Shown here piece after piece: positions 7,690 to 8,143 of a stretch of 15,910 nucleotides of DNA. The notes below the pieces were generated by a model that saw only the letters and a program-made list of their open reading frames with translations, searched no databases and was not told where the DNA came from. The first letter of the stretch is position 1. Each line of letters begins with the position of its first letter. The stretch covers positions 1-15,910 of the forward strand of contig JBEHXF010000042.1 of assembly GCA_048498835.1 (NCBI GenBank), in the 5' to 3' direction. The DNA is from Chlamydiota bacterium. GTDB taxonomy: Bacteria; Chlamydiota; Chlamydiia; Chlamydiales; SM23-39. The translations under genes and the position numbers were made by a program.

Positions 7690-8143
7690 CAAGAATGAAA
7701 TAACAAGGATCCGGCGAAACGCCGGGCAGGATCGCCGCAAAAGCGGCGACAGGATAAAAATTCATCACAGAGATAGACAACCACAGAGGCGGGGAAGCCC
7801 CGCGCCCCAAAGAGAGCCCCCTTGTTTTTGCTGCGCAAAAACTCATCCCGACGCAAATTTTTTTATCTAAGCGAGATAAAATAATGGGAGTCTTTTGTAG
7901 CGCTTGATAAAAAAATTTCCCTCGTGATTTGAGCTGACGCTCAAGCGGGGGCATCCCCGGCTCTGCGTCCTCTGCGCCTCAGCAAAGCGTTTCGCGCCTC
8001 TGCGTTAACTCTTTTTGGGGGAGGTGTGGAGGGCTTCCCTCCGCCTCTGTGATTGTCTATCTCTGTGGTGAATGTTTATCCTGTCGCCGTTTCGGCGATC
8101 TTGCCCGCACGCTTCGTGCGGATCCTTGTTAATTTCTTTCTTG
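7690..8143. repeat. Long imperfect inverted repeat (arms ~7690-7816 and ~8009-8143) enclosing a hairpin-rich core; candidate MITE/REPIN-like element
   Basis: 7744-7792 matches the reverse complement of 8041-8089 at 46/49 nt. Similarity continues outwards (CAAGAAtGAAA-TAACAAGGATCC vs CAAGAAaGAAAtTAACAAGGATCC) and inwards (CCCCAAAgAGAG vs CCCCAAAaAGAG). Confidence 0.9.

Follow-up and report, generated by a model that had tools for sequence, protein, structure and literature searches.

The stretch of DNA that we analysed (the window, 15,910 nucleotides) is contig C42 of the chlamydial genome G000 (1.97 Mb, 97% complete), and it carries a pair of facing arms filled with small hairpins; the question raised by this locus is what such an array is and how it came to be there. 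The first-pass annotation had described six hairpins at 7711-8121, three per arm, and upon re-reading the sequence we found their stems, loops and coordinates all as given. In total, 8 perfect hairpins (stem of at least 6 bp, loop of 3 to 4 nt) were present in this interval, whereas 300 dinucleotide shuffles averaged 0.29 and never exceeded 2, and DNA folding of each arm alone gave z values of -4.9 to -6.0. The description of all six stems as perfect was correct for the lengths quoted, but in right hairpin 3 only the inner 6 bp are perfect; this hairpin has an 8-bp stem in other copies, the outer part of which is mismatched here. The inverted repeat as a whole extends from about 7697 to 8135. 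Divergence between the arms had been described as concentrated in the stems, with nearly identical spacers; however, the spacers also differ, at 4 positions, so the divergence is not confined to the stems. The parts of the element and its neighbours are as follows.

7152-7240, no strand assigned: second, smaller gene-less mosaic belonging to this system, made up of AACGAT repeats, a variant of hairpin 3 and one more short module
7264-7602, minus strand: left neighbour, 112-aa hypothetical protein, a host gene outside the element (PF11381 for 3 of 19 homologues)
7697-8135, no strand assigned: composite gene-less element, arms A+B on each side, pointing inward around an asymmetric core
7697-7755, plus strand: left module A, three CAGGAT-type heptamers with hairpins 1 and 2 between them, the '-GAT' clade arm type
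7711-7725, plus strand: hairpin 1 allele a, in left module A
7732-7749, plus strand: hairpin 2 allele a, in left module A
7756-7812, plus strand: left module B, two CACAGAG repeats followed by hairpin 3 allele a and its tail
7789-7803, plus strand: hairpin 3 allele a, in left module B
7816-7959, no strand assigned: core, blocks K1-K4, themselves small hairpins, with a further hairpin at 7946-7959
7961-8012, minus strand: module C, a CGCAGAG-type arm; this third type has no counterpart on the other side
8017-8077, minus strand: right module B together with hairpin 3 allele b (one mismatch, 8026-8044)
8078-8135, minus strand: right module A, holding allele b of both hairpin 2 (8084-8098) and hairpin 1 (8105-8121)
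8179-8970, plus strand: right neighbour, NUDIX hydrolase, a host gene outside the element

The order A-B-core-C-B-A suggests that doublets were nested within doublets at this locus. Each type of module was found elsewhere: left module A has the same layout as the arms of two GxxExxY loci (L018 and L084), left module B hardly differs from either arm of the C60 GxxExxY gene (L017), CGCAGAG arms enclose GxxExxY genes in L023, L025 and L485, and the core blocks recur in different combinations at loci on C13, C36, C38, C40, C52, C53, C62, C66 and C75. The ORFs across 7697-8135 matched no Pfam family, and the element is thus a gene-less form. Both neighbouring genes point away from it (a divergent gap), and the close homologues of the 112-aa protein are from Chlamydiota or Chlamydiales. 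The smaller mosaic at 7152-7240 sits between the convergent msrA and 112-aa genes, and AACGAT arms like those of its repeats enclose GxxExxY genes in L026 and L477. By eye, a possible -35 box lies in the outer right arm with a weak -10 box 17 bases further on (8126-8154, plus strand), ahead of the NUDIX gene; with 8 of 12 matches, this candidate is under the cutoff of the promoter scan.

The left arm alone gave 76 matches in G000, and there are about 60 mosaic repeat loci in this genome (64 in the module parse). That parse showed a fixed grammar, in which inward-pointing arms are linked to one another through hairpin 3 and oppose each other across cores that vary. A near-complete second composite was found on C13 within unrelated flanks, with the likeness ending at the outer heptamers, and neither the C42 nor the C13 composite is flanked by a target duplication. 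In G000, hairpins 1 and 2 have two stem alleles each and hairpin 3 has two main ones; thus, the left-right differences at 7697-8135 are allele differences that exist genome-wide, and the two arms represent two alleles of a dispersed repeat family. All four combinations of hairpin 1 and hairpin 2 alleles were present (14, 6, 4 and 3 copies). Facing arms were heteroallelic in 17 of 23 cases (permutation mean, 10.7; P = 0.006, which is overstated because the pairs partly descend from few ancestral composites), and tandem neighbours in 12 of 25. This excess above chance in facing arms explains the left-right pattern that had been noticed first. The proposal that each arm is kept as its own folded strand survives only in part: pairing is retained while stems change, but there is no co-evolution of the arms at the locus.

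One-sided stem changes were counted in 27 parsed copies of module A (five more with 3-nt loops were left out). They affected 6 of 344 positions in hairpin 1 stems versus 11 of 621 in the spacers, which is the same rate. Stem breakage at the background rate, which the first-pass annotation had named as speaking against maintained folding, was therefore observed for hairpin 1, and 16 of the 76 third hairpins in G000 were broken. In contrast, the stems of hairpin 2 were intact (0 of 310 positions with a one-sided change, P = 0.02), and its loop was hypervariable and once inverted (C40).

Heptamer runs such as these presumably flank GxxExxY genes, and for that reason we searched G000 with PF13366. 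Three matches were obtained, none of them on C42, and all three lay within inverted arms built like the modules of the repeat family; TIGR04256 was confirmed for the two genes that were scanned. The gene on C60 has arms made of module B and hairpin 3 and contains one internal stop (TAG), and the gene on C4 has arms made of module D. The arms of the gene on C2 have the module-A layout with three CAGGAT heptamers and wholly different but perfect stems, including a hairpin nested in the loop of another; hairpins nested within hairpins were noted at L018. The stems of the C2 gene match neither allele of the dispersed module A, which counts against a link to 7697-8135, and the G000 assembly yielded no gene enclosed by module C arms. 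Given the C2 stems, the C60 stop codon and the missing module C gene, no one GxxExxY gene could be assigned as the driver of the copy at 7697-8135.

The association between gene and arms was not restricted to G000. Inverted arms (local score of at least 40) were present at 19 of 26 GxxExxY loci (the three of G000 included), at 57 of 80 (16 of 80 in the direct-orientation control) and, in a third set, at 26 of 29; the three sets overlap, so the counts are not additive, and a sample drawn with one protein as the query is weighted towards the '-GAT' clade. Arms are missing from several GxxExxY genes, which counts against the association. Among chlamydial genomes, GxxExxY was present in 33 of 37 repeat-rich genomes (absent by search in the other 4) versus 6 of 37 repeat-free ones, with kin that are not independent. 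A tree was built by a quick method from the 90 proteins that have arms, out of 136 with a full match; on it, the heptamer label of the arms changed 14 times compared with 40.4 times after shuffling, although linkage alone can give this result. The '-GAT' arms and the '-GAG/-AAG' arms corresponded to two clades (support, 98). Since the arm heptamer follows the protein clade, the element at 7697-8135 joins arms of both main clades (module A belonging to one clade, modules B and C to the other). In the 1.9-Mb genome G046, there were 60 scored PF13366 matches, about 11 of them near full length and most others C-terminal halves, which probably reflects a burst of the gene-carrying form.

The GxxExxY protein has about 125 residues, and its predicted structure (pLDDT, 95.8) was most similar to the Cas4 nuclease SSO0001 (Z, 8.1; root mean square deviation, 3.1; 96 residues aligned). 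An Hjc junction resolvase was among the further fold matches (Z, 6.9), and restriction-type folds were close as well. Such middling Z-scores point to the fold only, not to an activity or function. The D, ExK and QxxxY positions are conserved in the alignment, and GxxExxY shares them with Cas4 nucleases and Hjc resolvases; GxxExxY differs from Cas4 in its small size and in having no conserved cysteines among the invariant columns of the alignment, where the four-cysteine Fe-S cluster of Cas4 was looked for. Nicking of branched DNA and of a cruciform plasmid is described for one Cas4, and a part in transposition is predicted for the Cas4s of mobile elements (bioRxiv 10.1101/2024.11.29.625776). 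GxxExxY (PF13366) is listed as being of unknown function with many transfers (PMC3424549), and the parts of the GxxExxY/PF13366 literature that were available give no sign of flanking repeats. A published pairing of GxxExxY with repeats was not found in the literature searched (supplements and most subscription papers lay outside the search), and the element at 7697-8135 belongs, as a gene-less member, to a nuclease-repeat system that is apparently unpublished.

The comparisons show where the arms come from (GxxExxY loci), that they are dispersed, reassorted and nested, and that their loops are polar and their alleles paired. On the sequence evidence, we estimate a probability of roughly 0.55 that the element is a gene-less mosaic of GxxExxY arms and, as such, likely a selfish, non-autonomous DNA, folding as a single strand, with cutting by the GxxExxY nuclease and copying through recombinational repair as the predicted steps. 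The GxxExxY protein would bind its own heptamers, and on strands exposed transiently during replication, in transcription bubbles or in cruciforms, the small hairpins would fold first. The nuclease might then nick the folded or branched arm, and repair from another copy via arm homology would move cores and modules and leave no target duplication. Facing stems would differ because identical arms form a long perfect palindrome that would be purged; alternatively, unequal facing stems may be kept because they force side branches (four-way junctions). Should some of the outer hairpins terminate transcription, this would be a side effect that makes it easier for copies to persist. Counting against this, the long arm-to-arm duplex was favoured at equilibrium for the element in the window, and the all-hairpin form cost 11.6 to 14.9 kcal/mol in DNA; the all-hairpin ladder was the best fold only in a G121 doublet and in two of four G218 doublets. 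On a strand that is exposed from one end, local hairpins would nevertheless be the first to fold.

Gene-less arm pairs were dispersed, mostly just behind stop codons, with reassortment of modules. At an empty site, about 230 extra bases accompany the doublet in G218, while the junction is 0 to 5 bases wide in its congeners G206, G042 and G387; the G218 doublet thus reads as an insertion, the exact ends of which are unreadable at 65 to 70% identity. For 7697-8135 no empty site could be recognized, the neighbours not being adjacent in congeners. In G087 (L490, G087:C15), the position of a doublet coincides with an inversion, relative to three congeners, of the gene blocks beside it; this may be a chance rearrangement. 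Doublets also nest in the centres of other doublets. Long perfect palindromes with stems of about 25 to 40 bp occupied the centres of several doublets (G317, L425, L427, L428 and L429), one of these being a doublet of the CGCAGAG type that lies within a CAGGAT-type one.

If the element were instead a MITE of a DDE insertion sequence, inverted ends and the non-autonomous state would be shared features, and one lineage does have a doublet enclosed by a genuine MITE. This lineage is G121, where a module-A doublet is contained in an element of 174 to 230 bp. The terminal repeats of this element are 14 bp long and look ISAs1-like, a tentative label, and 7 of the 9 complete copies that were examined have target duplications of 10 bp. 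However, G121 has 33 occurrences of these terminal repeats, whereas G000 has one, which contains a mismatch and is not accompanied by the module; PF13808 (ISAs1-type), the one DDE family searched, was not found in G000 or G121; and the element at 7697-8135 has neither a target duplication nor DDE ends. A target duplication was absent from the C13 composite as well, and none recurred at a fixed distance in 40 doublet regions (4 of them unparsed). The doublet in the G121 MITE is a case of hitchhiking in one lineage, and we consider a MITE origin very improbable. The doublet was amplified inside the G121 MITE, in a 230-bp form (e.g., L058, L062, L066, L070 and L080) for which no transposase was found, and its two arms were very different from each other.

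To our knowledge, the movers linked to REP-like repeats to date are HUH transposases, and some families lack a known mover. A REP origin, with RAYT or another IS200-type HUH transposase as the mover and the element as a BIME, would fit the mosaic, intergenic, inverted doublets, their 3' bias and the heteroallelic pairs. As far as the available parts of the sources go, REP/BIME/REPIN repeats with RAYT (TnpA-REP) and TIRtrons are likewise dispersed intergenic palindromic doublets that form mosaics, with 3' bias and an excess of heterodimers, and likewise have few partner enzyme genes, flanked by the repeat (PMC8266576, PMC3733652). The first-pass annotation had compared the hairpins to REP/HUH substrates; however, no HUH/RAYT partner gene was found in this genome. 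PF01797 gave 0 matches at an E value of 1 in G000 and none in 12 of 21 repeat-bearing genomes, and none of the 15 Y1 loci of repeat-bearing genomes carries arm motifs. GTAG, GGAG or CGTC lay at most 6 bases from a stem in only 15 of 234 strand readings, so the chlamydial arms are without the GTAG/CGTC tag of REPs. A Y1 gene could have been missed because the assembly is 97% complete and repeats occur at 17 of its 176 contig ends. The systems differ further in that the partner of the chlamydial arms is a PD-(D/E)XK Cas4-like nuclease rather than an HUH tyrosine transposase, that the conserved unit of the arms is a heptamer direct repeat in which the hairpin is a variable insert, and that the GxxExxY gene sits in the loop of one long inverted repeat. 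We therefore give a REP origin very little credence.

The structured RNA that had been offered as a further possibility received almost no backing. A very stable fold (z = -17) would be expected of a non-coding RNA gene, but the window gave 0 Rfam matches up to an E value of 1, homologues at 6 other loci gave generic hairpin matches far below the gathering scores, and the element is patchy, multicopy and reassorting, with flanking genes that are not adjacent in congeners. That it is an RNA gene is hardly conceivable, and we conclude that the element is neither an RNA gene nor a REP.

The hairpins themselves are inserts. In most of the phyla sampled, arms are free of hairpins and consist of heptamer runs whose spacers are 2 bases long; hairpins take the place of the spacer in chlamydiae, in Opitutales and at one Armatimonadota locus, with stems that often differ between the arms of one gene. 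The CAGGAT-type motif was found in 113 of 401 genomes of the phylum, with up to 161 copies, and a reversed control was near 0. Outside the module-A set of G000 (206 loci), 85 of the 170 distinct inserts between CAGGAT-type repeats were of the form C...G, and 53 of these were perfect hairpins (shuffles: mean, 2.9; maximum, 9) with 28 different stems. In a 9-sequence alignment of the slot, 52 of 52 cells were paired and 3 of 6 pairs had changed on both sides. Additionally, G121 has the same module with flipped pairs, that is, covariation between genomes.

The loops showed a strong polarity. In 42 repeat-rich genomes, the CAGGAT strand carried C-TNC-G 316 times (29 genomes) versus C-GNA-G 11 times (6 genomes), with all four bases at N, which places the GNA loop on the outward-reading strand. 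Among the 53 distinct perfect hairpins of relatives, 26 had C-GN(N)A-G on the opposite strand and none had it on the CAGGAT strand; CTTG and TTTA loops were also present. GNA loops form extra-stable DNA mini-hairpins, the RNA counterpart being much weaker (PMC13037366, available text), and CTTG and TTTA are described as type II DNA loops in the part of PMC9975016 that was available. Of the two proposals made earlier, recognition of single-stranded DNA or a structured RNA, the loop polarity thus suits folded single-stranded DNA better. The purine mini-loops that had been singled out are a lineage feature and not a conserved trait, since the same strand carries TNC loops in most chlamydiae. G000 and G121 deviate from this, their loops being A-rich on the inward strand and T-rich on the outward one: the loops of G000 are G-AAG-C, G-AAA-C or variable 4-mers, scans for C-GNA-G gave 0 and 1 matches, and the six hairpins of 7711-8121 are not of the C-GNA-G or C-GNNA-G type. 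The conserved feature may be a well-folding outward strand rather than a purine loop. Loop types as in most chlamydial arms are known from the mini-hairpins GCGNAGC and GCGNNAGC of the phage G4 origin, ssiA and the N4 promoters (PMC13037366, available text). The chlamydial mini-hairpins differ from these in interrupting dispersed repeats, and the loops of G000 are register-shifted or T-rich on the outward strand.

The position of the copies is also compatible with roles in RNA, which counts against the selfish reading. Convergent gene pairs held 29 of 53 arm-family loci versus 94 of 550 gaps, and divergent gaps held 3 of 53 versus 168 of 550 (loci picked by hand, ORFs called with a simple caller); copies often lay 4 to 60 bases from the end of an ORF. 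The arms would then still derive from GxxExxY loci, with hairpins that the host keeps at the RNA level as intrinsic terminators or 3' stabilisers. Both outer hairpins of 7697-8135 are terminator-like for outgoing transcripts, and REPs with the same 3' bias are thought to be transcribed (PMC3733652, in the portion available). However, the locus at 7697-8135 is one of the three in divergent gaps, one doublet lies in a translationally coupled junction, and many lineages have stems of 3 to 4 bp, with the nearest T run about 15 bases away. Terminator prediction gave 3 sites versus 1.5 +/- 1.4 expected by chance, and the loops conform to the GNA/GNNA rule for DNA, any of the four bases occurring in the middle and non-GNRA forms being included. 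A terminator or stabiliser role as the main explanation is thus quite unlikely.

The hairpins could also lack a function altogether if template switching perfected quasi-palindromes, gene conversion spread the alleles and long perfect palindromes were purged, so that facing arms end up unequal. The intact stems of hairpin 2 beside a hypervariable loop would be expected under such a process, as would copies that reverse direction within a hairpin or join the half-stems of two alleles, and the hairpins within hairpins at L018. Hairpin-free arms being the rule in most phyla sampled agrees with it too, and the available text of PMC3733652 ascribes the heterodimer excess of REPs to protection from clearance. 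However, hairpins in the same slot in three phyla are left unexplained, the arms still need a mover, and the 316:11 polarity is accounted for only if fold-back at GNA loops is itself the source of the mutations. We consider this fairly unlikely as the whole explanation; it is partly compatible with a selfish, single strand-folding mosaic of GxxExxY arms.

A broader possibility, which we put forward tentatively, is that GxxExxY cassettes are a new class of mobile DNA driven by a minimal Cas4- or resolvase-like nuclease. Each protein clade would recognize its own heptamer, the folded strand would put out mini-hairpins next to these heptamers in a ladder of four-way junctions, and the doublets would be both targets and offspring of the nuclease. 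The mosaics would then be gene-less doublets that took up each other's arms. If correct, a PD-(D/E)XK protein of about 125 residues, with clades tracking short DNA motifs, would provide the palindromic repeats of bacteria with a second engine; a widespread unannotated family would gain a function, and its loci would provide a compact natural series of assayable nuclease-target pairs. The hairpin inserts represent DNA mini-hairpins kept in chromosomal repeats across a phylum. In practical terms, such repeats occur at contig ends (17 of 176 here) and can pass for structured RNAs. Pattern scans of metagenome and viral contigs gave two hairpins in 5 of 214 parsed matches and GxxExxY nearby at 0 of 186 loci, mostly chance matches.

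Several further repeats and genes were observed along the way. Module E, a hexamer-repeat module with 34 copies in G000, joins the same mosaics; PF05635 (four-helix-bundle IVP), a candidate partner, was not found in this genome. Facing arms bracket pairs of host-like ORFs at C12:8700-10800 (287 and 266 aa, similar to each other) and C15:3728-4891 (162 and 145 aa), which are possibly cargo. Another inverted-repeat family rich in GC mini-hairpins is present at C7:53079-53750, C2:41700-42047, C2:74090-74349 and C55:11355-11546, the C7 copy having 157-bp arms and no ORF inside, and a separate MITE-like element of 173 bp with 30-bp inverted ends was seen at C2:69289-69461, C5:14028-14200, C11:8647-8819 and C83:3688-3745. 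Elsewhere in the window, the C-terminal part of a dnaX-like ORF contains proline-rich repeats (2918-3260), and an AT-richer stretch encodes a 756-aa ankyrin-repeat protein (11843-14113, plus strand), a common type in host-associated chlamydiae.
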